Assembly: GCA_038063875.1 (NCBI GenBank)
Contig: JBBTUH010000002.1
Span: 12,530-76,529 of the forward strand
DNA length: 64,000 bases
Source of the DNA: Patescibacteria group bacterium
GTDB taxonomy: Bacteria > Patescibacteriota > Microgenomatia > UBA10105 > UBA927
Direction of reading: 5' to 3'
Positions 15,986-63,990 of this stretch are shown here, in pieces. The translations under genes and the position numbers were made by a program. The first letter of the stretch is position 1. The number at the start of each line of letters is the position of its first letter. Below the pieces are notes generated by a model. It was not told where the DNA came from. It did not search any database and worked only from the letters and a program-made list of their open reading frames with translations.

Positions 15986-16624
15986 TTACACTGCCCCCTT
16001 GCCGTAGATCATCGCCCACGGGCTTTTCAGTATTATGATGATATCAAGAAGCAGAGACCCTCGCTGTACATAATCAGCATCAAGCTTGATGCGTTTGTCA
16101 AAGTTTACCTCACTTCGTCCTGACACCTGCCAGTATCCAGTGATCCCAGGGCGCGCTGAAAGCACTACTTTTACCAACTCTCTGGTGTGTGGATACTTTC
16201 TTTGCTGCTCTATAAGCTCGTCAGGATAATAGGGTCTGGGGCCTACTAAACTCATATCACCTTTAAGGACATTTAAGAATTGTGGAATCTCATCGAGTGA
16301 ATGTTTGCGGATAAATTTGCCAACAGTGGTCACCCGAGGATCCTCAAGCAATTTGTAACTGTTTCGCTTGTACTCTTGATACAGCGCCTTTAGTGTCGGA
16401 TCTGTACGTAACTTCTCATGCGCATTGACGATCATTGATCGAAATTTTAGAAGTTTAAACGGTCTCCCATCTTTGCCGACGCGCTCAGGCGTGTCAGCAA
16501 ATATAGGTCCCGGTGAATCAAGTGTGATGGCAATTGCCACGAGAATACTTATAGGCAAGAAAAAAACAAAAAGGATCACACTGCCAACCAAATCTATACA
16601 CCGCTTAAAAATGGAATACCACAT
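15986..16624 (-). CDS. undecaprenyl-phosphate sugar phosphotransferase (small bacterial sugar transferase family, PglC/WbaP C-terminal type); initiating phosphoglycosyl transferase
   Basis: 212 aa. N-terminal re-entrant helix. KLLKFRSM and [21 protein letters not shown] motifs are diagnostic of PF02397. Confidence 0.85.
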
Positions 16625-16630
16625 AAAGTT

Positions 16631-17713
16631 TTAGGTGAGGTGATCGTTGTCAGTCCCCTGCATAGACTCTACAAGTTTTTTGACTTTCGGTACTGATGTT
16701 TTTTTACAGATCAACAAAACGTCTTTGGTGTTGACAACCATTATGCCATCCAGATCAATGGTCGCTACAAGCTGATCGGTATAATTGTACACTAATGAAT
16801 CCTGAACATCTGTAAGCATAACATTGCCTTGCGTCACATTCTTATCATCACTGGTTTCCAACGACTCCTTGAGCGCTTCCCACGCACCGATATCACTCCA
16901 CTCTATGTTTTCCGTAACGACCAGTGAATCTTTTACGTTCATTTTCTCCAAAATTGCATTATCAAAACTTATTTTCTCTAGCGTCGGGTATACGTGGCTT
17001 AATACCGTTTCAAACTCTTTTGTCCCATACGTATTGGCGATTTTCTGTATGCCAGAAGCCAAATTTGGTGCAAACTTTTGATATTGTTTCCACAAAAATG
17101 CTGGCGTGGTCACGAAGTACCCCAAATTCCATGCATGATGCCCGCTGACAAAATATTTTTGTGCGGTCTCTACATCTGGTCGATATTGATAATCTTCAAG
17201 TGAATGAAACGATACGCCATTATGCTCTTCTATTTTCTTGCCATACGATATCCAACCCAAATTTTCGCTAGCAAATCTAGGCTTTTGTGATACAAACACT
17301 ATTTTTTGCGGATCTTTGGATATAACCTCTCCTGCCGTGATAAGAAGTTTACGAAACAATTCTTCCTTTTTGACCAAATGATCGCTCCAGAGAATCACCA
17401 TGGGCTCCAGAGGGCTTTCTTTCAAAAGAATTGCAGACATCAGCCCTACTGCTGGCCCCACATCCCTCACTTGCGGCTCTCCAATCACGTGGGTAGAGGC
17501 TACATGGGGAAGTTGTTTTTTCACAAGCTCTACATACTGCTTTCCCGTCGATATGTACACATCACTCCATAAAAAATCAGGTTGCAGCCGTGACGCAGCA
17601 AGCTGCAACGTAGATTGATCTCCAACTATTTTTTCAAATTGCTTGGGAGATTTCTTCCGTGATAATGGCCATAACCTCGTGCCCACGCCGCCCGCAAATA
17701 TTATCGCTTTCAT
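16631..17713 (-). CDS. manC: mannose-1-phosphate guanylyltransferase (no C-terminal cupin)
   Basis: GGVGTRLWPLSRKKSPKQF canonical ManC/GMP N-terminus. 360 aa. Confidence 0.8.
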   Translation of the reverse strand: MKAIIFAGGVGTRLWPLSRKKSPKQFEKIVGDQSTLQLAASRLQPDFLWSDVYISTGKQYVELVKKQLPHVASTHVIGEPQVRDVGPAVGLMSAILLKESPLEPMVILWSDHLVKKEELFRKLLITAGEVISKDPQKIVFVSQKPRFASENLGWISYGKKIEEHNGVSFHSLEDYQYRPDVETAQKYFVSGHHAWNLGYFVTTPAFLWKQYQKFAPNLASGIQKIANTYGTKEFETVLSHVYPTLEKISFDNAILEKMNVKDSLVVTENIEWSDIGAWEALKESLETSDDKNVTQGNVMLTDVQDSLVYNYTDQLVATIDLDGIMVVNTKDVLLICKKTSVPKVKKLVESMQGTDNDHLT

Positions 17714-17721
17714 AAAAATTC

Positions 17722-18801
17722 CTACCTTTCAGAAACTATACGCATCAGAGTATCGCTCATTTTTTGCTTAAAGTGCTCTTTTGAAAATTGTGCTGCCTGA
17801 TTTTTACAATCTATGGATAGGATACGTGCCATATCAAATTTTTTGATAGCCTGCTTTATAGATTCCACAGACTGCTCCTCAAATAGTATACCAGTCTTTA
17901 GGTCTATAACACTTTCTGACACGCCACTATGTTTATACGCGATAACTGCTTTCCCTCGCGCTTGTGCTTCTACTGCTGCTATACCAAAGTCTTCGTCAGC
18001 CGCATACAGAAACGCACGACAGTTGTCATAATACGAAACCAACTCTTTCTCTGTCAAATGATGTGTCACAAACGTTATGGTATTTCCTGCTATTTTTTGT
18101 AACATAGGCAACTCTCTCCCGCTCCCAACGACCACCAAGGGGACCTGTAACTGATTACACGCGCGGATAAGTAAATCAACGCGTTTATACGAAACAAGGC
18201 GCGAAACTGTCAAAAAATAATCACCAGAAACAAATTGCTTGGCAGGACTAATTTCTACTGGCGGATAGATTACAGCCATAGTTTTTCTATGATAATATTT
18301 TTCAATTCTCGCTTTCACGCGATTTGAGATTGCAATATATGCATCCGGCCTATGTGAGGCTATCAAATCCCAATGTTTTAAAATAGGTGCCCATTTTTTC
18401 AAAAAAAATCCTAATACGGGCATTCGTACATACTGCTCATACCCACTCCATAAATATCTCGTTGGGGTAAGACAATAACATATATGATATGTCTGCGGTT
18501 TCGTAATAATATTCTTAGCTTCCGCAGACGTTACAGAAATCACAAGATCGAACTGATCAAAAGTAAATTGCTCAAAGGCAAACGGTGTCAACATTGGTAA
18601 CACTTCATGAAATGAAGAGGCAAATGGAAGGTTGTTTAAAAACGAGGGTCGCACGCTAAATACCTCAGCCCATCCTGCTTTTTTAGCATTGTATACGGCA
18701 GTATAGAGAGGCGCATCCGGATACAGCTCATGAAGCGCCATAAGCACCCGTTCAGCTCCACCATACTTATTTACCCGATCATATACGAGTGCAACTCTCA
18801 T
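17722..18801 (-). CDS. glycosyltransferase family 4 (GT-B, retaining)
   Basis: 359 aa. C-terminal GT1 domain with an E..G...E-type motif (AVEAQARGKAVIA). Confidence 0.75.
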   Translation of the reverse strand: MRVALVYDRVNKYGGAERVLMALHELYPDAPLYTAVYNAKKAGWAEVFSVRPSFLNNLPFASSFHEVLPMLTPFAFEQFTFDQFDLVISVTSAEAKNIITKPQTYHICYCLTPTRYLWSGYEQYVRMPVLGFFLKKWAPILKHWDLIASHRPDAYIAISNRVKARIEKYYHRKTMAVIYPPVEISPAKQFVSGDYFLTVSRLVSYKRVDLLIRACNQLQVPLVVVGSGRELPMLQKIAGNTITFVTHHLTEKELVSYYDNCRAFLYAADEDFGIAAVEAQARGKAVIAYKHSGVSESVIDLKTGILFEEQSVESIKQAIKKFDMARILSIDCKNQAAQFSKEHFKQKMSDTLMRIVSER

Positions 18802-19861
18802 AAAGCTTTAACGTTTTCTTTGCCATATCATGCCAATCATATTTTTTCAAAAATGATGTCATCTTTTGAGGTGAAATTTGATGATCGCTTTTTTTCCACG
18901 CAAAAAGAAGAGTGGCAAGATGCTTACTGTCGCTTGATGGAAAATACGTAACCATATCCTGAAGTATTTCTTTATGCACAGGAATATTTGACGCGATAAC
19001 GGGACACCCGAAAGAAAGTGCTTCAAGGGGCGGCAGCCCGAAACCCTCCATCAGGGAAGGAAACAAAAGTGCCTGCGCGTATGTATACAAACAGACAAGC
19101 GTCGCATCATCCGCTGCTCCAAAGAAAACTACTCGTGACGACAATCCTCGCGTGATAATCTGTGCGTGCAAACGTTTGTAAAAAAAATCTTCCTTCCCGA
19201 CAAATACTATTTTCGCTTTTGATTTGAAATGAGAAAGAGCGTCAATAACGACAGCAAGATTTTTGTGAGGGTACGCATTTCCTACGTACAAAAAATACGG
19301 AAAAGAAAACAGTGGGCCTGTTTTTTTATTTTCTAAATTCACCCCTTCATATGTCACGGTTATTTTGTCGCCTGCAATTCCATAGTGTTCTTGAATTTCA
19401 TTCTTGGTGGCGTTTGATGGAACGATGATATGTCGTACTTTCTTAATACCTATGGATACAATTACACCATATAAAAATCTTTTCACCTTGTACATCAACC
19501 ATGGACCTGTAGAAGCTTTTCCGGTATCAAAGTGTTTTATTGTGAGATCATGAATCGTCACAATCATCGCTCCGTTATAAAAAATTGGTATATTAAAGTA
19601 TGGAATATGTACAACATCCAAACGCTCTATAGCAAACAAAAACGGCATCACACACTGCTCGAAAACAGTGTGCCATCGGACATTAGCGCGCACCTTTTTC
19701 CATCGAGCGTTGGGAACAATAAAATTGTTAAATCCTGTCCGATATAAAAAAACAACGTATTCATTCTGGTCATCAAGTACTATGAGTTGCCGTATAAGAT
19801 TACGGATATACCGTCCGACACCAGTCTCATCTATAAGGCGCGCGTCTATGCCTATTTTCAT
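18779..19861 (-). CDS. glycosyltransferase family 4
   Basis: 360 aa. GT4 C-terminal domain (MEGFGLPPLEALSFGCPVIASN). Confidence 0.75.
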   Translation of the reverse strand: MKIGIDARLIDETGVGRYIRNLIRQLIVLDDQNEYVVFLYRTGFNNFIVPNARWKKVRANVRWHTVFEQCVMPFLFAIERLDVVHIPYFNIPIFYNGAMIVTIHDLTIKHFDTGKASTGPWLMYKVKRFLYGVIVSIGIKKVRHIIVPSNATKNEIQEHYGIAGDKITVTYEGVNLENKKTGPLFSFPYFLYVGNAYPHKNLAVVIDALSHFKSKAKIVFVGKEDFFYKRLHAQIITRGLSSRVVFFGAADDATLVCLYTYAQALLFPSLMEGFGLPPLEALSFGCPVIASNIPVHKEILQDMVTYFPSSDSKHLATLLFAWKKSDHQISPQKMTSFLKKYDWHDMAKKTLKLYESCTRI

Positions 19862-20781
19862 ATCCCGATTCTCTCCAATAAAAATATACGAATAGTATAA
19901 AAATCATCTACCATCATCGTAATCCACCACGGATATATTTTTTTATAGTGCTTTTTGTAAAACAACCAGTTATATCTATGAAAATATACTTCTGTAACGT
20001 TTCGCCTTTTTTTGAGAATGTTGTCTCTTCCACTTTGCTTCTTGCGATGCAGTATCGACGTTTGCGGATTAAACATGATCTTCCAATCAGCTTTTTTTAT
20101 CCGATAACACCAATCAATGTCCTCACCATACATAAAATAATCCTCATCCAGAAGTCCTACGTGTTCTATAACCTCACGCCTCACCATAAAAAACGCACCG
20201 ACGATACAATCTACCTCGTGAATAGTTTCTAAACCTTTATATCCTTGGTGATATTGTCCAAATATTGTTGACGTAGGGAACAATTTTTCAAGCTTCAACA
20301 AATACGTCAAGGATGCCCATGGTGTCGGAAATCCTCTATGACACGAAGGATCCAAGTCCCCTGATGGTAATAACACCTTGCACGTTGAGACGCCCACATC
20401 ATGATGCGCATCCATATATGAGATCATGGAAAAAAATGTCGTCTCACGCACTTCTGTATCTGAATTTAATAGTAAAATATATCTGCCTTTGGATTTTTTG
20501 ATCCCTGAGTTATTCCCTGCTGCAAAACCTATATTTTTTCCATTTTGTATACGTATAACTTCGGGGAATTCTTTCGAGACCATCTCAAGACTTCCGTCAT
20601 CTGATGCGTTATCACATACGATGACTTCCATTGTGTAATCTCCAAGCAACGAAGCAAAGACTGTAGATAAACACGCACGCAACAGCTCCTTTGTGTTATA
20701 CGAAAGTATGATGACAGAAAGATCGACCTTATCGTTTTTTTTCATGTGTAGTACGCCAAACTGTATCAAGCGTTTTTGCAA
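19858..20781 (-). CDS. glycosyltransferase family 2
   Basis: LSVIILSYNTKELL...VIVCDNASDDGS and downstream DxD-type motifs. The true start is possibly the internal Met at 20745. Confidence 0.8.
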   Translation of the reverse strand: MQKRLIQFGVLHMKKNDKVDLSVIILSYNTKELLRACLSTVFASLLGDYTMEVIVCDNASDDGSLEMVSKEFPEVIRIQNGKNIGFAAGNNSGIKKSKGRYILLLNSDTEVRETTFFSMISYMDAHHDVGVSTCKVLLPSGDLDPSCHRGFPTPWASLTYLLKLEKLFPTSTIFGQYHQGYKGLETIHEVDCIVGAFFMVRREVIEHVGLLDEDYFMYGEDIDWCYRIKKADWKIMFNPQTSILHRKKQSGRDNILKKRRNVTEVYFHRYNWLFYKKHYKKIYPWWITMMVDDFYTIRIFLLERIGI

Positions 20782-21913
20782 TGCTATCCCAATTATATTC
20801 TCTCTCTACCAGCGTTCGAGCTGCTTTTACTACTTTTTCTCTATGGGAGTGATCACTGACCAATCGCGCCAGTTTATCGACAAACTCATGTGGCGTATTG
20901 GCAATCAAAACGTGTTTTTCATCTTCACAATCAATACCTTCTACACCCGCACGCGTAGAAACGACAGGTACACCGCTTGCCATCGCCTCGAGCACTTTAA
21001 ACTTTGTGCCGCCAGCGATGGTCATGGGAGCTAATAAGGCAAACGCAGCATTATACTCATCACGGATATCAGAAACATCAGTTTTACCTATAATTCTACC
21101 GGTTAATGCAGCCAATACATTTTCAGGCATATTTCTCCCAACGATTGTCAATGTGCTCTTTGGAAAACTCTCTGCAATCCTCGGCCAAATATCTGATAAC
21201 AAACGCTCTACAGCCTCTATGTTTGGTAACCAACGAAAATTACCAACAAAGAGAAAATTTTGGAGTATCTCTTTTTTGTGTTTGGGAAACGTAAACGATT
21301 CTGTATCTACACCGTTTGACACGACAGATACAGGAAAACTTAAATATGATTCCATAACACGTTGATCTTTTTGGGACACCGCCGTCACCATGTCAGCCTT
21401 TCGCCATACATAGTGCTCCCAGCGTTTAAGCCGCGAAACATCAATCATAAGAAGAAATCGCAACGGCAAAAAAGAACGTTTTCGCACATACTCTTCATAC
21501 ACCTGATACTCAATATTATGTTCAGAAACCACAATAGGAACGCGTGTATTTGGTATCGATGGCCACACATAAAACGGTTCAAGGTGAATAAGATCAAATG
21601 CTTTCGTAGCGAGTACCTTCGTAAGAAGCCTATACATCTTGGCATTGGCATAGGTCGAAAGCAAAAACGGCATCCGTGTAAACAAAGCTCTGGCTATATA
21701 CGGCACCTGCCATGCGCGACCACGATTGACCATATAAACCTGCTCACAAAATGAAAGGTCATTTTTATAGGATCGCTCTTTCTCATCCCTAATAAATGAG
21801 ACGAGTGTGATTGTATGTTTTGAAGAAAGACGCTTGAGAAGATTATACATCCGTATTTGTCCCCCCGAATGCAGAGGATACGGTAACACTGCTGAAACGA
21901 CGAGGATATTCAT
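20729..21913 (-). CDS. glycosyltransferase family 4
   Basis: 394 aa. N-terminal ILVVSAVLPYPLHSGGQIRMYNL (GT4 N-domain) and C-terminal EAMASGVPVVST. Confidence 0.8.
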   Translation of the reverse strand: MNILVVSAVLPYPLHSGGQIRMYNLLKRLSSKHTITLVSFIRDEKERSYKNDLSFCEQVYMVNRGRAWQVPYIARALFTRMPFLLSTYANAKMYRLLTKVLATKAFDLIHLEPFYVWPSIPNTRVPIVVSEHNIEYQVYEEYVRKRSFLPLRFLLMIDVSRLKRWEHYVWRKADMVTAVSQKDQRVMESYLSFPVSVVSNGVDTESFTFPKHKKEILQNFLFVGNFRWLPNIEAVERLLSDIWPRIAESFPKSTLTIVGRNMPENVLAALTGRIIGKTDVSDIRDEYNAAFALLAPMTIAGGTKFKVLEAMASGVPVVSTRAGVEGIDCEDEKHVLIANTPHEFVDKLARLVSDHSHREKVVKAARTLVEREYNWDSIAKTLDTVWRTTHEKKR

Positions 21914-23331
21914 TTAGGTTTTGTAAGATCGATAATAGCAAACGTATCATTTCGCACGAGCACTGTATAGGTCTCTGCCAGTGTTTTTGTCTCCCAGTCG
22001 GCATCTGTTGGGGACACAGTTACGTAGTGTGTCGCACCTTGTGCTAATTTTTTGTCTATATCAAATCCCAAAGGCCATCCTGTACGCTTGGTCTGATATA
22101 GAAACGTCGTATCACCGTTATATGGTGCTATGACCTTGGCATCTTTGGGCAATATCCTATCAGCTTCTATCCCTGCCATGATAATTTCTGGCCTGTTTAT
22201 CCAGTAATATGTACGCATATGAAACCACGAAAACGCAGTCGTAAATCCTATACCAACAACTAAAAATGTAATAGATGCGACACGAGAGAAATTTGTGTTC
22301 GTTAACAGATATGCAATTCCCTTACCTGCATATAAACATATGACGGGAAGAAGGAGTATCTGATAATAATCATGACGCACGTTGCCAGCGGCAAAAATAA
22401 CAAGATATGCAATGCTTCCAAGCAACAAAAGAGGTGGGACCCATTTTTCTTTTTTATCAAGCTTTAACGTAATGCCAAGTCCTACAAAAACTACTCCCCA
22501 ATATCCTAAGATAAGTTTCGATACGCGTTCAGCAAACAACCAATGAAACCATGCGCCTTTAAATCTGATATTGCCATCATTTAATAGCCATAAAAACACA
22601 GGGATGCCTTCTTTGTACTGCAAGATCCATTGCCTCCACCAAAGAAATGGGACAATAGTGATCAACGCGGCAATAGCCGCACGCGCAAATAATTGTAAAG
22701 AAAATTTATACTGTAAAATCATTAAACCTCCCAATGGCAACAACAAAAAGCCTGCTGTCGGTTTGATAAGAATAGATAGGGATGCACAAATTACGGATAA
22801 GAAAAAAGAAGTCTTCATCATTAAAAAAATACTACTTATCGCAAAAAACACCGCTAATGGCTCGGCTAACACTACCCTCCCATAAAAAACACTATACGGC
22901 AGTATCGCATACAAAAACCCAGCTGAAATTCCAGCAAGCGGTGTGATAAGCACAGAGGCTATAACCGCAAGAAGTACCGCTGTCAAGGCTGATGCAATGA
23001 TAGTGATTATACGAAGCGCTATATCGACTGATAAAAACGGCATCATACGCACAAGCATCGTAGCTGCCGCCTGATACAGTGGGACTTCCACCATCCTATA
23101 CCCATGTGGATTATCTTTGCCTGACTGGATGTTTGAAAGATCATGGTAACGGGGATGCAATACATCTATACCATCTGTCACAAAAATTCGAGCGACAGAT
23201 GCGGTATCTACTTGACGAAAACTATGCCAGTCAGAAACAGGCGCTGTTACTTTGTACAATCGAAGCCCTACAGCCACGACAAATATCCCCACAAGAGCAA
23301 TCGTAAACCAATATTTTTTCAAATCTTTCAT
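21910..23331 (-). CDS. polytopic GT-C fold membrane glycosyltransferase (ArnT/PMT-like, GT39/83-like)
   Basis: 473 aa. At least 10 predicted TM helices. A first periplasmic loop with a D-x-x-x-x-x-R motif after TM1 (QVDTASVAR). 4-bp overlaps with both neighbours. Confidence 0.6.
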   Translation of the reverse strand: MKDLKKYWFTIALVGIFVVAVGLRLYKVTAPVSDWHSFRQVDTASVARIFVTDGIDVLHPRYHDLSNIQSGKDNPHGYRMVEVPLYQAAATMLVRMMPFLSVDIALRIITIIASALTAVLLAVIASVLITPLAGISAGFLYAILPYSVFYGRVVLAEPLAVFFAISSIFLMMKTSFFLSVICASLSILIKPTAGFLLLPLGGLMILQYKFSLQLFARAAIAALITIVPFLWWRQWILQYKEGIPVFLWLLNDGNIRFKGAWFHWLFAERVSKLILGYWGVVFVGLGITLKLDKKEKWVPPLLLLGSIAYLVIFAAGNVRHDYYQILLLPVICLYAGKGIAYLLTNTNFSRVASITFLVVGIGFTTAFSWFHMRTYYWINRPEIIMAGIEADRILPKDAKVIAPYNGDTTFLYQTKRTGWPLGFDIDKKLAQGATHYVTVSPTDADWETKTLAETYTVLVRNDTFAIIDLTKPK

Positions 23332-27150: not shown

Positions 27151-27162
27151 AAAAAATTGGGG

Positions 27163-27726: not shown

Positions 27727-27732
27727 ATAGTT

Positions 27733-28866: not shown

Positions 28867-28871
28867 ATGTA

Positions 28872-32721: not shown

Positions 32722-32729
32722 GGTTGTTG

Positions 32730-36908: not shown

Positions 36909-36925
36909 TATAATACAATGCCCTG

Positions 36926-49862: not shown

Positions 49863-49891
49863 ATACGGATCCTATTGTATCGAGGTATAGC

Positions 49892-50923: not shown

Positions 50924-50937
50924 AAAAAATGAAGAAA

Positions 50938-51837: not shown

Positions 51838-51841
51838 AGTA

Positions 51842-52723: not shown

Positions 52724-52726
52724 ATG

Positions 52727-53725: not shown

Positions 53726-53726
53726 A

Positions 53727-56295: not shown

Positions 56296-56345
56296 AAAAA
56301 TGGAAAATCATGAATAATAAAACGCTCAACTAGAATGTTACGTCC

Positions 56346-56891: not shown

Positions 56892-56894
56892 CCT

Positions 56895-57680: not shown

Positions 57681-58654
57681 GTGTTATTTAAATACCACAA
57701 ATACACTTTTGCTAGGACTTTTTTCAACGTATACGATGGAGCGTATCCTAATCCTTTCACCTTGTCAAAATTTAATGATTGGTAAGGTATTTCATTTTGC
57801 TGTGTATTAAGAATCGAGTATTGTACTTTTTTCTTCAACATTGTTTCAATCGTATTGATAACTTCAAGAACTGTTAAAGATTCGCCTGATGAAAGATTGT
57901 ATGCTTCTCCTTTAGACTTATCAATACAATCAAGAAGAACTCGATATCCGACTACTACATCCTTTACATATACGTAATCACGAACAAACATACCATCACT
58001 TCTTATATCTAATCTAGTATGAGTAATAATTGCATTAAGTACGCTCGGAATAATCCTATTAAAGTTTAAATCCCCTTCTCCGTATATATTGCCAAATCGA
58101 GTTACTACAATGGGCATATTATAAGTCTTAGCGTACGCAAGAGAAATTAAATCTGCAGAAGATTTTGAAACCTCATATGGATGATCGCCACGAAGGGGAT
58201 CAGACTCAACATACTTTTTTGTTGACTTGCCATACGCTTTGTCAGACGAAGCGACTATTATACCCTTAACGCTTCCATAGAGTCGCGCCGCTTCAAGTAT
58301 ATTCGTGGTGCCCAAAACGTTTGTAGTGATGGTTTCCCTAGGATTATTATACGCCGTAGTGACAATCGCCTGTGCCCCTAAATGAAAAATATAATCTATT
58401 TCATATTTGGTTACGATGTCAAACATTCGAGAAAAGTCTTTGAGATCACCTGAAACAAGAGTTACTTTCTTTGCAAGTTTTTGTGTGGCAAAATATGAAC
58501 CTGGATCAAGACTTCGAAAAGGCACGATTACACGAGATCCTTCAGAGATAAGGGATTCTACTAAATGGCTTCCAACAAATCCTGTGCCACCTGTAACCAA
58601 AATTTTTTTGCCTTTTAATTTTCCCATAGCTTCCATGGTTGGGTATCTTGCCAA
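57677..58654 (-). CDS. NDP-sugar 4,6-dehydratase (extended SDR; CDP-glucose 4,6-dehydratase by context)
   Basis: ILVTGGTGFVGSHL, YEVSKSSADL YxxxK and ASSDKAYG motifs. Flanked by two G1P cytidylyltransferases. Confidence 0.6.
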   Translation of the reverse strand: MARYPTMEAMGKLKGKKILVTGGTGFVGSHLVESLISEGSRVIVPFRSLDPGSYFATQKLAKKVTLVSGDLKDFSRMFDIVTKYEIDYIFHLGAQAIVTTAYNNPRETITTNVLGTTNILEAARLYGSVKGIIVASSDKAYGKSTKKYVESDPLRGDHPYEVSKSSADLISLAYAKTYNMPIVVTRFGNIYGEGDLNFNRIIPSVLNAIITHTRLDIRSDGMFVRDYVYVKDVVVGYRVLLDCIDKSKGEAYNLSSGESLTVLEVINTIETMLKKKVQYSILNTQQNEIPYQSLNFDKVKGLGYAPSYTLKKVLAKVYLWYLNNT

Positions 58655-59397
58655 TATGCATTCAAATGCTCTACATCAGCATATGTGTCCATGCAGTGCC
58701 AAAATCCTTCATGTTGATACATCGATAGCTGTTGTTGTTTTGCTAAGCGTTGAAGCGCTGGGTGCTCAGTTTCACCTTCCCGCAAATTATCAAAAAACTT
58801 TCTGTTAAAAATCATAAAGCCACCGTTAATCCAGTCCTTGAGTACCGGCTTTTCCTTAAACTGAAATACCGCCCGTTTAGCTCCAAGCTGTATGAGTCCA
58901 TATTTACTTCTTGGATGAACACCACTAATCGTACCAATTGTCTTCATTTTTTTGTGAAATGCGATTAGTTTAGAGATATTTATATCTCCCACGCCATCAC
59001 CATATGTAACCATAAAATCTTCATCAGCAGGAATGTAATCCTTACATCGCAGAATTCTCTCTCCGGGTAATGTTTCCTGACCAGTATCAACGAAGGTAAT
59101 TTTAAAATCATCAATTAACTTTCCGTCCGTCTTATCCCTATGAATCTTCGTTGCTCCAGTTTTTGTGTGAAGTGTAAAGTCATGCAAAAAATATTTTTGA
59201 TTTAAGAAATAATCTTTTATATAATCGCCCTTATAACCTAATGCAATAATAAATTCGTTAAATCCATAGTGGGCATAAATTTTCATGATATGCCACAAAA
59301 TAGGCTTTCCACCGATAAGCACCATTGGCTTTGGTTTAAACTCCGTTTCTTCCTTTAATCTGTATCCTAATCCACCAGATAAAATAATAGTCTTCAT
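58615..59397 (-). CDS. rfbF: glucose-1-phosphate cytidylyltransferase
   Basis: MKTIILSGGLGYRL...KPKPMVLIGGKPILWHIMKIY...VTYGDGVGDINI...INGGFMIFN...EGFWHCMDT matches Salmonella RfbF/DdhA almost residue-for-residue. Confidence 0.85.
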   Translation of the reverse strand: MKTIILSGGLGYRLKEETEFKPKPMVLIGGKPILWHIMKIYAHYGFNEFIIALGYKGDYIKDYFLNQKYFLHDFTLHTKTGATKIHRDKTDGKLIDDFKITFVDTGQETLPGERILRCKDYIPADEDFMVTYGDGVGDINISKLIAFHKKMKTIGTISGVHPRSKYGLIQLGAKRAVFQFKEKPVLKDWINGGFMIFNRKFFDNLREGETEHPALQRLAKQQQLSMYQHEGFWHCMDTYADVEHLNAYWQDTQPWKLWEN

Positions 59398-59407: not shown

Positions 59408-60385
59408 TTATAACGTATATCTCTTTACAAACAAACCTTTCGTCATCCAGAATGTTTCAAGAAACACCAAGCAAATCACAACAATCGGTAACAGCAGTAT
59501 ATTTCTATCTCTTCGCGATACCGAATCTGTAAACATGGTCCACATATACCAGAAAGGAAAAATAATTAATGGCAGCACAAATAACGGATATACAAATGAT
59601 AAAATTGTCAAAACGACTAACATAGGCTTCACGAGAAAAGGAATAAAACCAACTCCCATTTCCCTCCAATGAAGTCGTATCTGCAAAGCGTACGATATTG
59701 CTAAAAATTTTCTACGCTTCACCCAATCTTGCATGCTGTAATTTATGTCTCTTCCATGAAGATGAACCACACGAGCGTTTGTAACCGCTATCTTACCCAA
59801 GGAAGCTAATCGAAAATTCATATCTGCATCTTCAGATCCAATGTAATGATCAAAGTTTTTTGTATCATATCCACCCACACTCAAAAATATATCTCTATCA
59901 TAAGCGTCAAACTTACCATTCAAGCTATGACGCTTAGTTTCGACAACTGAAGCAAATAGGCATTTTTGCCAAAAATTATATTTATCCCATTCTATCTTGC
60001 GATGAACCACGTTAGGCATAGCAGCAATAAAGTTTTTTTTATAAACAAATGGACTCATCAATCGAGCCAACTCAAATTTCGTCGGCAACGTACTATCTGA
60101 ATGAAGTGTCACTATGTATTTACTTCGAGCAAGCGCCGCCCCTAAATTATAACTATGCGAAAGTCCGTATGTTTTCTTTCGTTGAATAATCTTGATAGGA
60201 ATTCTATGATGCATCTTTATAAATGCTTGTGCAACAGCGACGGACCGATCAGGTGAATGGTTATCTATAAGAAGCATTTTCTGTATCGGATAGGTTTGAC
60301 CGTAAATGCTTTTTAAAACATCAGCTAACACACGCTCCACTTTGTAGACAGGAATAATAATCGTCACCGTAGGTAGTTGTTGCAT
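59408..60385 (-). CDS. glycosyltransferase family 2 with C-terminal TM helices
   Basis: VTIIIPVYKVERVL...LLIDNHSPDRS, plus three C-terminal hydrophobic helices. Confidence 0.75.
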   Translation of the reverse strand: MQQLPTVTIIIPVYKVERVLADVLKSIYGQTYPIQKMLLIDNHSPDRSVAVAQAFIKMHHRIPIKIIQRKKTYGLSHSYNLGAALARSKYIVTLHSDSTLPTKFELARLMSPFVYKKNFIAAMPNVVHRKIEWDKYNFWQKCLFASVVETKRHSLNGKFDAYDRDIFLSVGGYDTKNFDHYIGSEDADMNFRLASLGKIAVTNARVVHLHGRDINYSMQDWVKRRKFLAISYALQIRLHWREMGVGFIPFLVKPMLVVLTILSFVYPLFVLPLIIFPFWYMWTMFTDSVSRRDRNILLLPIVVICLVFLETFWMTKGLFVKRYTL

Positions 60386-60391
60386 AATTGT

Positions 60392-60592
60392 CTACTCAGT
60401 ACATGTATGTACAGTTCCTTCTGGGACATGTTGGTTACATTTTGGACAATGCTCACACTTAACAAACGCATGCCCCTTCATCGTGCATCCCTGCGGCGCT
60501 TTGCATTCTTTTAATCCTTGGTCATACTGCTGCTTCATAATAATTGCTATGCATGTTCCGGTACAAATATAGTGTTTTTCCATGTTGCTCAC
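60392..60592 (-). CDS. small Cys/His-rich protein (66 aa, 8 Cys), putative metal-binding or redox protein
   Basis: CTGTC...C...C...C.HCPKC...C spacing. Sits tightly between two GT genes (4-bp overlap upstream, 6-bp gap downstream). Confidence 0.35.
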   Translation of the reverse strand: MSNMEKHYICTGTCIAIIMKQQYDQGLKECKAPQGCTMKGHAFVKCEHCPKCNQHVPEGTVHTCTE

Positions 60593-61701
60593 CCCGCTTT
60601 CTCAAGCACTGCTAATGCTTGGCTATAATATTTTTCATATTCAAAACACTGTGCAAATGCATGTACACCTTTTTGGTATGCGCCACATCGTCTTTTAATG
60701 CGTTTTAACGCGACAGCAAACTCTGCTACTTCATCTATGAGTTCACCAGCCATATAGTGCTTTATATATGGCGCTATGGCAGACGTGTTTGTCATAATGA
60801 CTGGTAGTCCCATTTCTATATATGTTTTTACCTTCCCCGGATCCGTATAGTGTGTAGCCGTATACTCTCCCTTTTCATATAACGCAATGCCAACATGATG
60901 AACTTTTGCTATTTTTTTCAATTCATCGTCATCCACGAATCTGTTGGGAAACCATACGCGATCAGAAATCTTATATTTTATTAATAGAGAATTATATTTC
61001 TCAAAAAGATTTTTTTCACACACACCAATAATTGATAATTCTACCTTTGGAGTATTTTTTATAAAAAGTAACAAATCTTCTATGCCCTGTGAAGGTCGTA
61101 TAGCACCCACAAACAACAATTTAAATGATGAAGTAATTTGCTTTTTTGATCCCGTATATGGTTTTACTCCCCACATAACTGTTTTTTTATTCGCAAGTCT
61201 AACGACCTTGCCATTAAAAATTTTATTAATTCTGTCACTTAAATAGTATGTATACGAAACTCGGTCATGATAATATTTTTTTAGTTTTTCAAAAAGAATG
61301 AGCGACCAATGCACTGGAGGAAAATAGTCTCCTATCCAATATGCATACTCCACACTTCGCAATAATTTCATCACACTCATACCGATAAATGCTACAGGAT
61401 GTCCGCCAAATACCAACACATGCTCTAAGCGTGAAAAATACTGCAGCAGAAAAAGATTATGGTGATACCACCATAAGAAATAATAGAAAAATATATTTGT
61501 TGACGAACCAACGCTATGCTCGTGCGTTAATATTCCTCGATCATACACACGTAGGGCATTGGTACCACCATTCACTCTCGGCATGATTATATATACAACA
61601 AGCTTTTTTGTGTGACGAGCAAAATATTCCATTGTATGCCCGACGCTTTGCAAGCTTGCGTAAAGAAATATAGTGTCATAGTAAAATACGGATTTTTTCA
61701 T
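60589..61701 (-). CDS. glycosyltransferase (GT4-like GT-B)
   Basis: The C-terminal FKLLFVGAIRPSQG...HHVGIALYEKGEYTATHYTDPGKVKTYIEMGLPVIMTN resembles the GT1 domain. Confidence 0.6.
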   Translation of the reverse strand: MKKSVFYYDTIFLYASLQSVGHTMEYFARHTKKLVVYIIMPRVNGGTNALRVYDRGILTHEHSVGSSTNIFFYYFLWWYHHNLFLLQYFSRLEHVLVFGGHPVAFIGMSVMKLLRSVEYAYWIGDYFPPVHWSLILFEKLKKYYHDRVSYTYYLSDRINKIFNGKVVRLANKKTVMWGVKPYTGSKKQITSSFKLLFVGAIRPSQGIEDLLLFIKNTPKVELSIIGVCEKNLFEKYNSLLIKYKISDRVWFPNRFVDDDELKKIAKVHHVGIALYEKGEYTATHYTDPGKVKTYIEMGLPVIMTNTSAIAPYIKHYMAGELIDEVAEFAVALKRIKRRCGAYQKGVHAFAQCFEYEKYYSQALAVLEKAG

Positions 61702-62570
61702 TTTTTTTGTAGGATACTTACCACATTACTTGCTCCATATGGGATATGTGAAAAATACGCATCAATTTTTTCTCCCCACGCATCCCATCGCGAGTTTTTT
61801 GTGAGTATGCGAAAAAATAAACAAGCAACTTTTCCGAGACTTCCTGTATAGTACGTATGCAATTCCGTAAATTTTGCAAATCTTTTTACGATTATTTCTC
61901 TGGTATACCTTCGTAGATGACCAATCCGTCTATCATGAAGCATATTTACCGGCCAAAGAAACGGCCAAACATAGTGTAATTGGATTGGCATAGCCATCAT
62001 AAGTACGGCGTTTTTTTTGAGCACTCGGCCAATCTCTTTAATTGCTTTTTTTTCACGCGGGAGATGTTCAAGTATAGCGTTTGCCACCATCCCATCGGCG
62101 ACACCAATCTTTATTGGTAGATCCTCTGAACTAGCACACACAAGTAATATTTTCTTTTGTAATTTTAGTTTTTCAACTGTCTGTCTTAGCTTCATAAGTT
62201 CTACAAACGTCAAATCCATTGCAATTATACTAAACCCACGTTTCGCAAGCTCTATCGCCATATATCCACTGCCTGTCGCATTATCTATGATAAGCCCCTT
62301 CGTGCGAGGTGAAGAAGAAATAAAGTTGTCTATATATCTTTTTTGCCATGGCTCTAACACGTAGGAAATTCTCGCCTGATCTTCTTTTTCAAAATACTGC
62401 ACTTGCTGTTGTAAATGTGAAGGCAACGAAGTTAAATCAATAAGAATTGGTATTCCGTTTGAGATGGCATAGTCTTTCTTACATTTCCTGCAAAAAAGGC
62501 TTTTTACCTTAGAGACGAGTGATTTTTTACAATGAGGGCAACAAAGATAATGTAGAAGTGGATGATTCAT
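61698..62570 (-). CDS. class I SAM-dependent methyltransferase with N-terminal Trm112-like Cys4 zinc ribbon
   Basis: LCCPHCKKSL...CRKCKKDYAISNGIPIL (Trm112/DUF343-like), then a Methyltransf_11 core (IDNATGSGYMAIELAK...AILEHL). Confidence 0.65.
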   Translation of the reverse strand: MNHPLLHYLCCPHCKKSLVSKVKSLFCRKCKKDYAISNGIPILIDLTSLPSHLQQQVQYFEKEDQARISYVLEPWQKRYIDNFISSSPRTKGLIIDNATGSGYMAIELAKRGFSIIAMDLTFVELMKLRQTVEKLKLQKKILLVCASSEDLPIKIGVADGMVANAILEHLPREKKAIKEIGRVLKKNAVLMMAMPIQLHYVWPFLWPVNMLHDRRIGHLRRYTREIIVKRFAKFTELHTYYTGSLGKVACLFFRILTKNSRWDAWGEKIDAYFSHIPYGASNVVSILQKK

Positions 62571-63727
62571 ACAGATTGAAACGCTTTCTCAAATATCATA
62601 TCCCAACGAAATTTATGTGCTTCTTTTATTGTTTTCTGCTTCATCTCATTTAATACATTCGCGTGGGTAAATAAACGAATAATTGCAGAGGAAATAGCAT
62701 GTGCTTCATATGGTATCACAACTGCCACTCCAGACCGCATAAGCTCTAGTGCGTTGTATGAAACATCGGTCATAAGAAGCGGCACACCGCATGATAGATA
62801 CGTCTTTATTTTCGTAGGATCGGCGTAGTAGCTAAAATTCGTTGTGTCCTTTCCACTTGGTTCATACGTAGCAAGGGCTAAATCAGACTTCATAATATGC
62901 TTCTGTATTACTTTTTGATTAGACTCCCAACCTAAAAATGCTACGTGTTTTGTAAGCGATAAATCATGGACAAGAGTTCGAAGCGTTTGTTCGTACTCCC
63001 CGCCACCAACAATAGCCAATGAAATGCGCGGCAGCTTTTTAATTACCTTGGGCAACGCGCGAATAATCTCTTGCACGCCTTGTTTTTGCAGTAAATGTCC
63101 TACGAAAATAAGTCTGTACTCATTTTTGGCTTTTATTTTTTTTATAATATCCTTTTCCCAAACTCCTATTGGTACGACTATTTGTTTGCCCTTCGTAGTC
63201 TTGAGTCCTAAAAACTTCTTTCGACCATCTTCTATACGTGGTGAGACATTCCAACATATATCAGAGAATCTCACTGCGAAACGCTCCATACCATGGTAGA
63301 TAAAATTGACCAACGAATTCTTGCTTCGTTTCGGAATAAAATCGATTGCATAAAATACAACGCGCTCAACAATTCCCATAGCTCTAAGAATTATACCCAC
63401 ACACGTGTTTAAGGGATTAACGCCTATATAAAGGTATGACCCTCTTGGTAATTTCATACACACAATAACTGTCGCAAGTGCGTCTCGAAAAAATGCCAGT
63501 ATTGTTCCAGCAAATTTTCTTTGCGCCGTGTATTCAACCGATTGTTTTCCTCCATTAAAACGTTTGATAGCATACGAAGAATTTTCAGAAAGCAACGGAT
63601 GGCCTATATAGACAAGCGTCTGTATTTTTTGTGATATAAGATAATCACGAAGCGCTTCTGAAGCACCGTAAAAAAAGGTATGTGTGACGATGATGATCCT
63701 CTGAGGAATATTCAAGCGACTTTGCAT
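62567..63727 (-). CDS. glycosyltransferase family 4
   Basis: 386 aa. C-terminal RLIFVGHLLQKQG...LAIVGGGEYEQ...YLSCGVPLLMTDV. Confidence 0.7.
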   Translation of the reverse strand: MQSRLNIPQRIIIVTHTFFYGASEALRDYLISQKIQTLVYIGHPLLSENSSYAIKRFNGGKQSVEYTAQRKFAGTILAFFRDALATVIVCMKLPRGSYLYIGVNPLNTCVGIILRAMGIVERVVFYAIDFIPKRSKNSLVNFIYHGMERFAVRFSDICWNVSPRIEDGRKKFLGLKTTKGKQIVVPIGVWEKDIIKKIKAKNEYRLIFVGHLLQKQGVQEIIRALPKVIKKLPRISLAIVGGGEYEQTLRTLVHDLSLTKHVAFLGWESNQKVIQKHIMKSDLALATYEPSGKDTTNFSYYADPTKIKTYLSCGVPLLMTDVSYNALELMRSGVAVVIPYEAHAISSAIIRLFTHANVLNEMKQKTIKEAHKFRWDMIFEKAFQSV

Positions 63728-63990
63728 ATATCTTCTAAAATACGGTCGCCGTCATAGGTATACTGCCAATTCGGATAGTGTGATTGAAACTTGGATACAT
63801 CAGAAATATACCAAATATGGTCGCCAATTCGTGGAGCATCCACATGCGTAATTTTTGCCTTTTTGCCTACAATTGCCTCTATCTTAGCCACTGCCTCTAG
63901 AATAGAAATGTTGGAATGCCGTGATCCGCCAATATTATATACTTCTCCTACACGTGGCTTTTTATACACCTCATAAAATGCTGAAATCAA
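63712..63990 (-). CDS. C-terminal fragment of an NAD-dependent epimerase/dehydratase (gene continues beyond the window end)
   Basis: 92 aa. ...VYNIGGSRHSNISILEAV... is typical of the C-terminal substrate domain of extended SDRs. The ORF is open at the window edge. Confidence 0.5.
   Translation of the reverse strand: MISAFYEVYKKPRVGEVYNIGGSRHSNISILEAVAKIEAIVGKKAKITHVDAPRIGDHIWYISDVSKFQSHYPNWQYTYDGDRILEDICKVA

Follow-up and report, generated by a model that had tools for sequence, protein, structure and literature searches.

What a surface-glycan gene cluster makes, and whether it acts as a single pathway, are the questions raised by a 64,000-nucleotide stretch of DNA (the window) from a Microgenomates (Patescibacteria/CPR) genome, that of an uncultured candidate-phyla-radiation bacterium. 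All homologues of its 713-, 993- and 669-aa proteins come from Patescibacteria MAGs, the named hosts being Gottesman-, Levy-, Woese-, Shapiro- and Amesbacteria. The original prediction described positions 15986 to the window end as one contiguous super-locus of about 48 kb for a complex, heavily decorated heteropolysaccharide, assembled for the most part outside the membrane. That the locus serves a surface glycan and encodes numerous GT2/GT4 enzymes, five transferases of GT-C type and nucleotide-sugar pathways was upheld. The near-continuous minus-strand coding was also real: accepted ORFs cover 98.2% of 15986-63727, and exact 4-bp ATGA overlaps occur at 10 same-strand junctions, plus two further ones (42565 and 46077) once GTG-start ORFs are trimmed to an in-frame ATG backed by NCBI or by sequence context, an operon-like packing. 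We found no sign of misassembly: over 13327-27520 and 40508-44132 the window is 99.95-100% identical to four independent public assemblies, and NCBI locus tags place the genes for the 993-aa and 669-aa proteins 20 genes apart, the same as in the window. The C-terminus of an SDR protein at the edge indicates that the locus extends beyond the window end, a point absent from the original prediction.

Rather than a single uniform super-locus, the stretch proved to be composite, made of a 13-gene core, semi-conserved genes, a toxin-antitoxin island and accessory blocks (Table 1). The core (13963-29456) is a deeply conserved Microgenomates block, its gene order shared by 49 or more related species. 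The gene for the 993-aa fusion protein was found in at least 581 species representatives; conservation was scored in the 80 best-scoring loci, a set skewed towards closer relatives, of which 49 have at least 9.5 kb downstream. All 49 of these adequately flanked loci are collinear, with a fusion identity of 34-56%, and downstream of the fusion gene they read PMT2-like, GT4, GT2, GT4, GT4, ManC, phosphoglycosyl transferase and DUF4012, the order of the four cytoplasmic glycosyltransferases being constant. Upstream, the four core genes keep their exact order in 53 of 61 loci. The half-size GT4 among these four is not a pseudogene, since relatives also carry it as a separate ORF of 178-194 aa. The DUF4012 gene, overlooked by the original prediction, is the last gene of the core and makes the cluster begin one gene earlier than 15986.

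Table 1. Features of the glycan locus, with the evidence for each and its occurrence in related loci (TM, transmembrane; L008, a close relative's locus).
Positions	Strand	Feature	Basis	Occurrence or identity
13963-15939	-	DUF4012 protein, 658 aa, one N-terminal TM helix, large extracytoplasmic domain	Pfam PF13196, E 3.7e-21; single-TM prediction	44/49 loci with enough downstream flank
15986-16624	-	Small phosphoglycosyl transferase, lipid-carrier initiating, 212 aa, one TM helix	Pfam Bac_transf, E 1.4e-59	47/49, mean identity 68%
16631-17713	-	Mannose-1-phosphate guanylyltransferase, ManC-type without PMI domain	NTP_transferase + ManC_GMP_beta-helix	48/49
17722-18801	-	GT4, core	Pfam	48/49
18779-19861	-	GT4, core	Pfam	43/49
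19858-20781	-	GT2, core	Pfam	46/49
20729-21913	-	GT4, core	Pfam	49/49
21910-23331	-	PMT_2-like GT-C, 473 aa, polytopic, C-terminal soluble domain	Homologue profiles	49/49
23328-26309	-	993-aa fusion, WaaL/Wzy-like (Wzy_C) + GT-C(A)		
26284-27150	-	GT2, upstream core	Pfam	59/61
27163-27726	-	Hexapeptide acetyltransferase, upstream core	Pfam	60/61
27733-28866	-	GT4, upstream core	Pfam	59/61
28872-29456	-	Stand-alone GT4 N-terminal half, upstream core	Pfam	55/61
29453-30445	-	GalE	TIGR01179	22/47 within 10 kb upstream of fusion gene
30450-30671	-	73-aa membrane protein		25/47 within 10 kb upstream of fusion gene
30668-31615	-	UXS-like SDR		18/47 within 10 kb upstream of fusion gene
31786-32721	-	Nucleotidyltransferase-like, partner in putative toxin-antitoxin pair	NTP_transf_8, weak, E 0.011	
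32730-33830	-	AbiEi_2-domain protein, putative toxin-antitoxin pair	PF09952, E 3.3e-6	
33871-34591	-	Two overlapping ORFs, 120 and 141 aa, without assigned function		71% and 93% to adjacent L008 stretches
34802-35767	+	SDR epimerase, inverted module	Pfam	79% to equally inverted L008 gene
35685-36353	+	Methyltransferase, inverted module	Pfam	
36321-36908	-	Methyltransferase, inverted module	Pfam	
36926-38080	+	GT4, inverted module	Pfam	
38081-38656	-	AbiEi, after AbiEii in complete AbiE pair	PADLOC, E 9.7e-31	
38653-39336	-	AbiEii	PADLOC, E 3.9e-24; Pfam AbiEii, E 3.7e-21	
39376-40596	-	GT4 adjoining GT-C block	Pfam	81% to L008
40586-42595	-	YfhO-like GT-C, 669 aa (660 aa from NCBI start)	hhalign; homologue Pfam	32/47 within 10 kb of core
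42565-46137	-	AftD-like GT-C, 1190 aa	Paralogy to 713-aa protein	71% to L008
46077-46424	-	115-aa protein, three predicted TM helices, between two AftD-like genes	TM prediction	65% to L008, where two copies exist
46417-48558	-	AftD-like GT-C, 713 aa		
48555-49862	-	RfbH 3-dehydrase	Pfam, NCBIfam	6/47 within 10 kb of core
49892-50923	-	GT2	Pfam	
50938-51918	-	FkbM methyltransferase	Pfam	
51842-52723	-	SDR	Pfam	
52727-53725	-	D-2-hydroxyacid dehydrogenase	Pfam	
53727-55541	-	ThDP enzyme	Pfam, NCBIfam	
55525-56295	-	Cupin	Pfam	
56346-56891	-	DJ-1/PfpI	Pfam	
56895-57680	-	Cytidylyltransferase-like	Pfam, NCBIfam	
57677-58654	-	4,6-dehydratase	Pfam, NCBIfam	
58615-59397	-	Cytidylyltransferase-like	Pfam, NCBIfam	
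59408-60385	-	GT2, two C-terminal TM helices, distal	Pfam, TM prediction	
60589-61701	-	GT4, distal	Pfam	
61698-62570	-	Methyltransferase, distal	Pfam	
62567-63727	-	GT4, distal	Pfam	
63715-63999	-	SDR epimerase/dehydratase C-terminus	Translation	

The core includes a two-in-one membrane enzyme without earlier description, the 993-aa protein, which combines a WaaL/Wzy-like N-terminal half with a C-terminal GT-C(A) module; its structure model has low confidence in the long outer loop of the N-terminal half. The Wzy_C/WaaL-like module had been overlooked in the original prediction. Wzy_C-family enzymes comprise ligases, polymerases and protein O-oligosaccharyltransferases, three activities that are indistinguishable by sequence. 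With such a module present, fused to a GT-C, a lipid-PP-linked oligosaccharide is likely to be polymerised or transferred en bloc, and bimodular O-antigen ligases such as WadA offer a precedent for the arrangement (PMC10920833).

None of the five polytopic proteins has a Pfam match above threshold; all are GT-C-type by structure or profile comparison, as predicted. The catalytic acids of GT-C enzymes sit shortly after the first TM helix, and conserved aspartates occupy this place in the GT-C modules (D38, D41, D34 and, in the fusion, D541/D542). D34 of the 473-aa protein, in the loop after its first TM helix, is kept by 90% or more of the sequences; 35 of 38 homologues match PMT_2 (best E 4.5e-19) and 19 match PMT. 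The 669-aa family, in which G39, G40 and D41 are invariant, aligns with the AftD-like family over 597 columns (hhalign probability 99.4%, E 4.7e-22), and some of its members carry YfhO (PF09586). The 1190-aa protein is 38% identical to its 713-aa paralogue over 594 aa plus the C-terminus and has about 470 more extracytoplasmic residues. The 115-aa protein encoded between these paralogues has no Pfam match, GtrA included.

Beyond the core lies a semi-conserved set, namely the genes for GalE, the 73-aa membrane protein, the UXS-like enzyme and the YfhO-like protein. The island at 31.7-39.3 kb holds two AbiE toxin-antitoxin pairs, one confirmed and the other putative; both had escaped the original prediction. 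The putative pair has no homologue in the relatives' loci L004-L006 or L008, and the 120-aa and 141-aa ORFs have no Pfam match. The three plus-strand genes reported earlier are real, and a minus-strand methyltransferase gene sits among them. Accessory blocks, composed of the AftD-like pair and the CDP-3,6-dideoxy/branched-sugar block with RfbH and the ThDP enzyme, differ even from those of L008, which keeps the overall order and has a different toxin-antitoxin family: the AbiE pair is absent there, with a HEPN/MNT pair in the same interval, and the two methyltransferases and the GT4 of the inverted module have no close homologue. An L008 AftD-like gene is only 38% identical, though its neighbours are 65-91% identical.

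Pfam assigned 13 GT2/GT4 genes where about 14 had been proposed, nine of them GT4-type (one an N-terminal half only) and four GT2; the single acetyltransferase and the four methyltransferases were all recovered. The proposed nucleotide-sugar pathways fared unevenly against NCBIfam cutoffs. GalE (396 bits, TIGR01179 cutoff 262) and RfbH (665 bits, cutoff 423, an equivalog-level match) scored above them. The remaining genes have the expected best family at sub-cutoff scores: ManC (TIGR01479, 225 bits, cutoff 373), the two glucose-1-phosphate cytidylyltransferase-like genes (TIGR02623, 282 and 228 bits, cutoff 300) and the CDP-glucose 4,6-dehydratase-like gene (TIGR02622, 184 bits, cutoff 278). 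UDP-xylose is assigned from an SDR motif that we take to be of the UXS type, and the window has no UDP-glucose dehydrogenase to feed this enzyme. The CDP-3,6-dideoxy branched-sugar reading of 48555-59397 is reasonable because RfbH matches at equivalog level and the ThDP enzyme, which falls below every acetolactate-synthase cutoff in NCBIfam, lies within the CDP-sugar block; for what YerE-type enzymes do, we follow PMC9306805. No E3 reductase partner of RfbH is encoded in the window. As originally noted, Wzx (Polysacc_synt), ABC and Wzz domains are absent from all window ORFs of at least 100 aa, and no flippase (Wzx, ABC, GtrA) is recognisable in the window or, in four relatives, in the 10 kb on each side. 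LCP-type ligases and other attachment enzymes are likewise absent. The distal GT2 with TM helices best matches the membrane GT2 6yv7 in the PDB and weakly the DPMS 5mlz, and no gene clearly codes for a polyprenyl-phosphate-sugar synthase.

On balance, we consider it fairly probable that the locus encodes a lipid-carrier pathway for a conserved Microgenomates cell-envelope glycopolymer, to which decoration genes that vary between lineages have been added. Because the order of the core genes is the same in at least 49 related species, the product is probably a basic envelope polymer of the group and not a strain-specific coat. [quoted passage not shown] Chain extension would then fall to the core GT4/GT2 enzymes together with the split GT4 and the acetyltransferase, drawing on GDP-mannose (ManC), UDP-galactose (GalE) and probably UDP-xylose. 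A postulated flippase would carry the lipid-PP-oligosaccharide across, and the fusion, through its WaaL/Wzy-like half, would polymerise it or transfer it en bloc to an acceptor, for which we favour a wall-linked polymer or a lipoglycan. Outside the membrane, the fused GT-C half and the PMT_2-like, YfhO-like and two AftD-like GT-Cs would add sugars from polyprenyl-phosphate-sugars. The distal block would supply a probably C-branched and methylated CDP-3,6-dideoxy sugar, with extra distal glycosyltransferase and methyltransferase activities for variable decoration. The core and the accessory blocks may share one target molecule. Gene content, folds, conservation and gene order are the observed basis of this scheme; all its substrates, the sequence of steps and the acceptor are inferred. 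With 13 cytoplasmic glycosyltransferases and the phosphoglycosyl transferase, assembly mostly outside the membrane is an overstatement, and elaboration or decoration of the glycan is the likelier task of the GT-C enzymes.

The same genes could instead form two or more independent neighbouring systems, the core making one polymer and the GT-C, CDP-sugar and GT/MT blocks after the island a separate glycan, either capsule-like or lipid-linked, that varies between strains. The island, with its toxin-antitoxin modules and inverted genes, breaks co-transcription, so linkage of core and accessory genes may not mean a single product; elsewhere AftD-like genes lie within 10 kb of the core in 1 of 47 loci and RfbH in the 6 listed in Table 1, GC is lower in the island and distal block (0.36-0.40 vs 0.41-0.44 in the core), and a 203-bp gap separates the genes at 60386-60588. 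The distal blocks, however, lack a polymerase, an exporter and a second initiating phosphoglycosyl transferase of their own. In 32 of 47 species the core adjoins the YfhO-like gene with which the distal GT-C block begins, and bipartite conserved/variable loci are well known from lactococci and streptococci (PMC10821137, PMC9746298). We regard separate systems as possible yet doubtful.

Unlikely, in our estimate, is general protein O-glycosylation, with the WaaL-like half acting as a PglL/WsaB-type O-oligosaccharyltransferase that transfers the glycan to S-layer, pilin or other surface proteins, and with the PMT-like GT-Cs adding O-mannose-type modifications. The Wzy_C family does include such transferases (PMC3643930), a true WaaL would find no lipid A-core acceptor in CPR bacteria, PMT/PMT_2 matches characterise the 473-aa family, and a Wzz-type chain-length regulator is absent from the window. 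Yet neither the cluster nor its surroundings, in the window and four relatives, hold a candidate glycoprotein substrate gene, Gram-positive PMT_2-type GT-Cs mostly act on wall polymers and not on proteins (PMC8035078), five GT-Cs and 13 cytoplasmic glycosyltransferases far exceed the needs of known O-glycosylation loci, and sequence does not separate the three Wzy_C activities. Very improbable is the picture first drawn, an ordinary hypervariable O-antigen/capsule-type locus. The dense GT/MT/acetyltransferase content and the rare-sugar pathway would suit it, and contigs of two further assemblies of this organism stop 167 nt upstream of the fusion gene, within the upstream core GT2 gene, hinting at strain heterogeneity; but collinearity of 13 genes in every adequately flanked locus, between orthologues merely 34-56% identical, is the opposite of O-antigen-type variation and disfavours a hypervariable heteropolysaccharide as the core's main product, and the window lacks Wzx, Wzz and ABC genes.

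The reading that we favour, a conserved envelope glycopolymer with variable decoration, has parallels in known systems. In its conserved core and variable decoration genes, the locus resembles the bipartite wall-polysaccharide loci of Gram-positive bacteria, where, in the lactococcal and streptococcal cases just cited, the variable part decorates the product of the conserved part. Extracellular glycosylation of wall polymers by a GT-A, a flippase and a GT-C has precedent (PMC8035078), and the GT-Cs of the window resemble the GT-C chemistry of mycobacteria.

The 993-aa membrane protein encoded at 23328-26309 on the minus strand (hereafter the fusion) lies within a block of genes that is widely conserved. 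By scanning one genome per GTDB species, we recovered the fusion from at least 581 species, and we compared the window proteins by tblastn with the best 80 of these loci (fusion identity 34-56%); since these are the best-scoring matches, the conservation figures apply to the closer members of the group. Downstream of the fusion gene, the genes coding for a PMT_2-like protein, GT4, GT2, GT4, GT4, ManC, a phosphoglycosyl transferase and a DUF4012 protein are collinear in 49 of the 49 loci with at least 9.5 kb, and the downstream core genes taken singly occur in 43-49 of these 49. Upstream of it, the four genes for a GT4 half, a GT4, an acetyltransferase and a GT2 are found in exactly this order in 53 of 61 loci. 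Together, the downstream and upstream counts delimit a 13-gene core at 13963-29456. Within 10 kb farther upstream (n = 47 loci), the genes found were YfhO-like (32 loci), the 73-aa gene (25), galE (22), UXS-like (18), rfbH (6) and AftD-like (1). Three distant genomes have the same neighbours in the same order around the fusion orthologue, and recO adjoins the core in the relatives examined. Homologues of three large membrane proteins all come from Patescibacteria MAGs, those named being Gottesman-, Levy-, Woese-, Shapiro- and Amesbacteria, and a 100%-identical protein is on deposit under 'Patescibacteria group bacterium AAB492_00490'; the window thus stems from a CPR bacterium of the Microgenomates type. 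Many MAG records with a Patescibacteria-type cluster are titled 'uncultured Gammaproteobacteria bacterium' (L011-L013, L015-L017 and others), titles that are probably placeholders or wrong labels.

The original prediction placed the start of the locus at 15986, one gene too late, as the core begins at 13963. Its description of dense coding with many 4-bp overlaps was borne out: accepted ORFs cover 98.2% of 15986-63727, and ATGA start/stop overlaps occur at 10 junctions, with two more at ATG starts backed by an NCBI call or by context. The single acetyltransferase (of the hexapeptide type) and the four methyltransferases that it listed were recovered, and its three plus-strand genes within 34802-38080 are real, with a minus-strand methyltransferase sitting among them; the GT2 and GT4 transferases, estimated at about 14, number 13 (9 GT4-type and 4 GT2). 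GC content lies at 36-47% in the window and is lower in the island and in the distal block (the CDP-sugar genes and beyond), and the window contains no tRNA or Rfam RNA.

Principal features of the window
Feature	Coordinates	Strand	Remarks
Division/cell-wall cluster: GlmU-like, MurA, MurB, Mur ligases, Cu-oxidase_4 protein, class B PBP, FtsL-like, MraW, MraZ	51-10362	-	
Two small ORFs, then class II aminoacyl-tRNA synthetase and RecO	between 10362 and 13963	small ORFs +	
Near-continuous glycan genes	13963 to window end		
Island	31.7-39.3 kb		between UXS-like gene and GT-C block
AbiEi_2 protein and nucleotidyltransferase-like protein	31786-33830		
Inverted epimerase/methyltransferase/methyltransferase/GT4 group	within island		
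AbiE pair	38081-39336		PADLOC AbiEi E 9.7e-31, AbiEii E 3.9e-24; genes overlap by 4 bp

The division/cell-wall cluster, whose FtsL-like member is a small transmembrane (TM) protein, and the glycan core lie about 3.6 kb apart on the same strand. Between them, two adjacent plus-strand ORFs of 126 and 111 aa (10823-11543) resemble each other by eye, and beyond this pair lies a 155-aa protein with one TM helix (11545-12012, minus strand); all three are without Pfam match.

Misassembly of the locus is unlikely and could be set aside, since independent assemblies agree with the window to 99.95-100% across 13327-27520 and 40508-44132, and the NCBI locus tags place as many genes between those for the 993-aa and 669-aa proteins as the window does. 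A further two assemblies of this organism (L001 and L003) end at window position 26476, 167 nt upstream of the fusion gene and inside the GT2 gene at 26284-27150, and a third (L002) reads through this position; strain heterogeneity may cause the breaks. One ENA contig of 996 kb carries proteins with 100% identity to the products of the 713-aa and 993-aa genes but annotates them at only 417 aa and 875 aa (P0010 and P0122); other start sites may have been chosen there, or the sequence of that assembly may differ.

The stand-alone 194-aa N-terminal half of a GT4 (28872-29456) is not a pseudogene fragment, as 55 of 61 loci have it as a separate ORF of about this length. Split GT4s recur at this locus: here the half is kept beside a full GT4, and the counterpart of the GT4 at 18779-19861 is divided into an N half and a C half in the relatives L005 (16923-17922) and L006 (16273-17266), and the near-identical assembly L001 (6616-7697) appears to have ORFs of 243 and 90 aa in its place. 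No PDB relative of the DUF4012 protein was found by sequence, and the family is noted in passing by Méheust et al. 2019 (PMC6744442).

All window ORFs of at least 100 aa were scanned against Pfam, and the five polytopic GT-C-type proteins (473, 993, 669, 1190 and 713 aa) scored below its thresholds. PDB sequence and profile searches with the membrane proteins and their family alignments (A1-A5) returned nothing useful, and fold comparison alone worked. The N-terminal half of the fusion has a WaaL-type fold and reaches 22.0 bits against Wzy_C (PF04932; E 1.5e-4), below the 31.7 cutoff, and some orthologues carry a precomputed PF04932 match. Its invariant Arg and His residues are H187, R234, R277, R381 and R416; the O-antigen ligase/Wzy_C group is marked by an outer loop with a catalytic histidine and two arginines that bind Und-PP (PMC10920833). 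WaaL/Wzy-like enzymes use lipid-PP-oligosaccharides as donors, and GT-C(A) enzymes use lipid-P-monosaccharides (PMC10920833). The fusion thus combines two modules of different donor class, a WaaL/Wzy-like one of the lipid-PP-oligosaccharide type and a GT-C(A) one of the lipid-P-monosaccharide type, these donors being predicted from family class.

The 713-aa protein (46417-48558) has a polytopic GT-C fold. In its family (30 sequences, 40-78% identity), G36, G37 and D38 never vary, and D34 and D46 hardly do; these residues come just after helix 12-26, which gives the protein the conserved acidic residue in the first extracytoplasmic loop that characterizes GT-C enzymes. By fold it belongs to the GT-C superfamily, and it is predicted to use a polyprenyl-phosphate-sugar donor. 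The DUF3367/AftD Pfam model matched neither this protein nor the 1190-aa protein (42565) even at E up to 5, and a profile of alignment A1 found no sequence in the PDB; the 713-aa protein is AftD-like by fold and lies outside the AftD sequence family. The 1190-aa protein is its paralogue, with 38% identity over 594 residues and in addition a C-terminal anchor, and carries about 470 extra extracytoplasmic residues. The 669-aa protein (40586) aligns with the AftD-like family over 597 columns (hhalign 99.4%, E 4.7e-22), including the GGD motif; it has no match to YfhO (PF09586), which is present in three listed homologues of 46-48% identity. Nearly all listed members of the AftD-like and YfhO-like families lack a Pfam match, and none has an informative name where the sources gave one. 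With this locus, AftD-type GT-C enzymes reach well beyond Actinobacteria. In the close relative L008, the positional counterpart of the 713-aa gene (811 aa, L008 3275-5710) is 38% identical at a site where the flanking genes are 65-91% identical, which points to allele replacement here.

No match to PMT_2 or PMT was obtained for the 473-aa protein (21910), and its homologues match PMT_2 in 35 and PMT in 19 of 38 cases, two of four syntenic orthologues matching both. As these homologues are PMT_2/PMT GT-C enzymes, the 473-aa protein was rejected as a missing Wzx flippase. An additional polytopic protein of 519-520 aa without Pfam match is present in L005 (5389-6948) and L006 (5358-6920) and absent from the window; it sits in the core between galE and the GT4 half, and its topology resembles that of the 473-aa protein.

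A search for export functions confirmed that Wzx, ABC and Wzz components are missing from the window. Wzx (Polysacc_synt, MOP) and Wzz/PCP domains were absent from the window ORFs and from the gene tables of the relatives L004-L006 and L008, and the window contains no ABC domains, whether of ABC-2 permease or ATPase. On these markers, the locus fits neither a Wzx/Wzy-dependent nor an ABC-dependent pathway, and no GtrA-family flippase of a three-component (GT-A/GtrA flippase/GT-C) system was recognised. The small membrane proteins of 115 aa (46077) and 73 aa (30450) have 2-4 predicted TM helices; the 115-aa protein, the one of the two that was scanned, gave no Pfam match, GtrA included. Assignment of the GT2 at 59408 as a GtrB/DPMS-type polyprenyl-phosphate-sugar synthase is unsupported, its best PDB match being the membrane GT2 6yv7, with DPMS at E 7.7e-4.

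GalE and RfbH score above their NCBIfam equivalog cutoffs, RfbH/DdhC (the E1 3-dehydrase) reaching 665.5 bits against NF011936 (cutoff 423). The ManC-like gene has its own family as best NCBIfam match with a score below the cutoff, as do two glucose-1-P cytidylyltransferase-like genes (281.8 and 227.9 bits; equivalog cutoff 300.25) and a CDP-glucose 4,6-dehydratase-like gene (184.4 bits; equivalog cutoff 278.45). The CDP-3,6-dideoxy branched sugar anticipated in the original prediction is plausible, since ThDP enzymes of the kind encoded here put acyl branches on CDP-4-keto-3,6-dideoxyglucose in yersiniose-type pathways (PMC9306805). RfbH speaks for it, as does the three-domain ThDP enzyme, which falls under all acetolactate-synthase cutoffs (351 vs 538); against it, no window ORF has the domains of an E3 (RfbI/DdhD) iron-sulfur flavoprotein reductase, which could be encoded elsewhere or be substituted by a general reductase. 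An SDR gene (51842) lies two genes downstream of the ThDP enzyme, with a 2-hydroxyacid dehydrogenase in between, and the distal block also codes for a cupin, a DJ-1/PfpI protein, an FkbM methyltransferase and the CDP-glucose entry enzymes. The DJ-1/PfpI protein (56346-56891) and the 256-aa cupin (55525-56295) lie inside the CDP-sugar block and have no obvious role in deoxy-sugar synthesis.

The AbiE pair of the island is complete, with a neighbouring AbiEi antitoxin and AbiEii nucleotidyltransferase toxin, the composition of AbiE type IV systems. The toxin gene is upstream of the antitoxin gene, probably the opposite of the usual order. Two overlapping ORFs at 33871-34591 (120 and 141 aa) without family match are 71% and 93% identical to adjacent stretches of L008, where they are split too; either a frameshift or a conserved arrangement of two ORFs may explain this. 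L008 retains the overall order from rfbH to the core, and also the inverted epimerase. In L008, the interval holds a HEPN/MNT pair (L008 16291-16916) in place of AbiE and lacks the extra GT4 and the methyltransferases. Toxin-antitoxin genes thus have a hot spot between the UXS-like gene and the GT-C block, which together with the variable distal blocks suggests where the surface comes under pressure from hosts or phages.

Taken together, the region probably encodes a pathway that builds a conserved envelope glycopolymer on a lipid carrier and decorates it variably. From the gene content, folds and synteny observed, we infer its substrates and order of steps as follows. The small phosphoglycosyl transferase would initiate synthesis, and the core GT4 and GT2 enzymes would extend the chain in the cytoplasm with mannose, galactose and perhaps xylose, with O-acetylation. 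The product would then be flipped across the membrane, a step for which no flippase was recognised in the window, and the WaaL/Wzy-like module would polymerise it or transfer it en bloc to a putative acceptor. Lastly, the GT-C modules would add sugars extracytoplasmically from polyprenyl-phosphate sugars. Such additions have a precedent in mycobacterial arabinan synthesis. They are also known from multi-component systems of Gram-positives (PMC8035078).

Other readings deserve consideration. An ordinary hypervariable capsule or O-antigen locus is the least likely of these and very improbable, given the synteny data. Two independent glycan systems that happen to be neighbours are conceivable, though we would not expect them. 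It is unlikely that the product is attached to protein by an O-glycosylation system. For the conserved glycopolymer that we favour, a more far-reaching and doubtful extension would make the core a Microgenomates-wide machine for an essential envelope polymer. Members of this strictly conserved core are the WaaL-GT-C fusion, the PMT_2-like GT-C, DUF4012, the split GT4 and the small phosphoglycosyl transferase; on this view, the fusion alone would couple en-bloc lipid-PP-oligosaccharide transfer or polymerisation with lipid-P-sugar glycosylation, and translocation would be of a non-Wzx/ABC/GtrA type. If so, the core polymer would play the part of an arabinogalactan or teichoic acid in a lineage without cultured members.

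CPR bacteria, Microgenomates included, are tiny, have not been cultured and probably live as episymbionts, and to our knowledge next to nothing is known of the chemistry of their envelopes. A 13-gene order kept among species whose orthologues are identical at about a third to a half of their positions speaks for a basic envelope component rather than an optional coat. Every part falls into a known enzyme superfamily, and the pathway follows a logic already familiar from lipid-linked glycans. The WaaL-GT-C membrane fusion, the class-wide collinear core and the large AftD-like and YfhO-like protein families of CPR bacteria appear undescribed in the literature searched, in which we found no described Microgenomates or CPR glycan cluster, an absence that is no proof as coverage was incomplete. 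The WaaL-GT-C fusion, DUF4012, AftD-like, YfhO-like and PMT_2-like families offer concrete targets.

Compared with Wzx/Wzy pathways ending in WaaL or a PglL-type O-oligosaccharyltransferase, the locus lacks Wzx and Wzz, the Wzy_C score of 22 bits falls short of the 31.7-bit threshold, and the organism has no lipid A-core. With the fusion, the known ligase fusions gain a bimodular transferase made of two membrane modules: in the bimodular ligase WadA (GT121+GT25; PMC10920833) the fused partner is a soluble GT25, and here it is a membrane GT-C(A). The CDP-3,6-dideoxyhexose/yersiniose A pathway of Yersinia pseudotuberculosis (DdhA-D, YerE, YerF) is matched by the cytidylyltransferase-like and 4,6-dehydratase-like genes, the equivalog-level RfbH/DdhC and, inside the block, an SDR reductase and a ThDP carboligase-family enzyme, compared with YerE by family; unlike that pathway, the window lacks a DdhD/E3 reductase and has two cytidylyltransferase paralogues as well as an extra cupin, DJ-1/PfpI protein, D-2-hydroxyacid dehydrogenase and FkbM methyltransferase.

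The bipartite rhamnose-rich cwps/rgp loci of lactococci and streptococci likewise consist of a conserved backbone part followed by a variable decoration part, and their product is a wall polymer of basic importance (PMC10821137, PMC9746298). The window differs in having no dTDP-rhamnose genes, no ABC exporter and other transferase families, and its conservation extends over a class-level group rather than a genus. Gram-positive multi-component systems (CsbB/GtcA/YfhO, GtlA/GtlB, Csd, Gac; PMC8035078) resemble it in that YfhO-like and PMT_2-like GT-Cs adjoin a GT2 (GT-A) with small 3-TM proteins nearby, and by analogy decoration of an envelope polymer outside the membrane would be expected. Here, however, the proteins do not reach the YfhO and PMT_2 thresholds, no GtrA match was obtained for the 115-aa protein, and the five GT-Cs stand together with the backbone pathway rather than in scattered pairs. 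With mycobacterial arabinogalactan/lipoarabinomannan synthesis (AftA-D, Emb; decaprenyl-phosphate sugars), sequence identity is 13% only, with no DUF3367/AftD Pfam match; arabinose and galactofuranose precursor genes are missing here, the proteins have 669-1190 aa compared to about 1400 aa for AftD, and a WaaL-like module is present. Nevertheless, both systems encode several large GT-Cs with extracytoplasmic domains together with a lipid-carrier-primed, cytoplasmically started polymer, and in both the pathway is conserved throughout the lineage.
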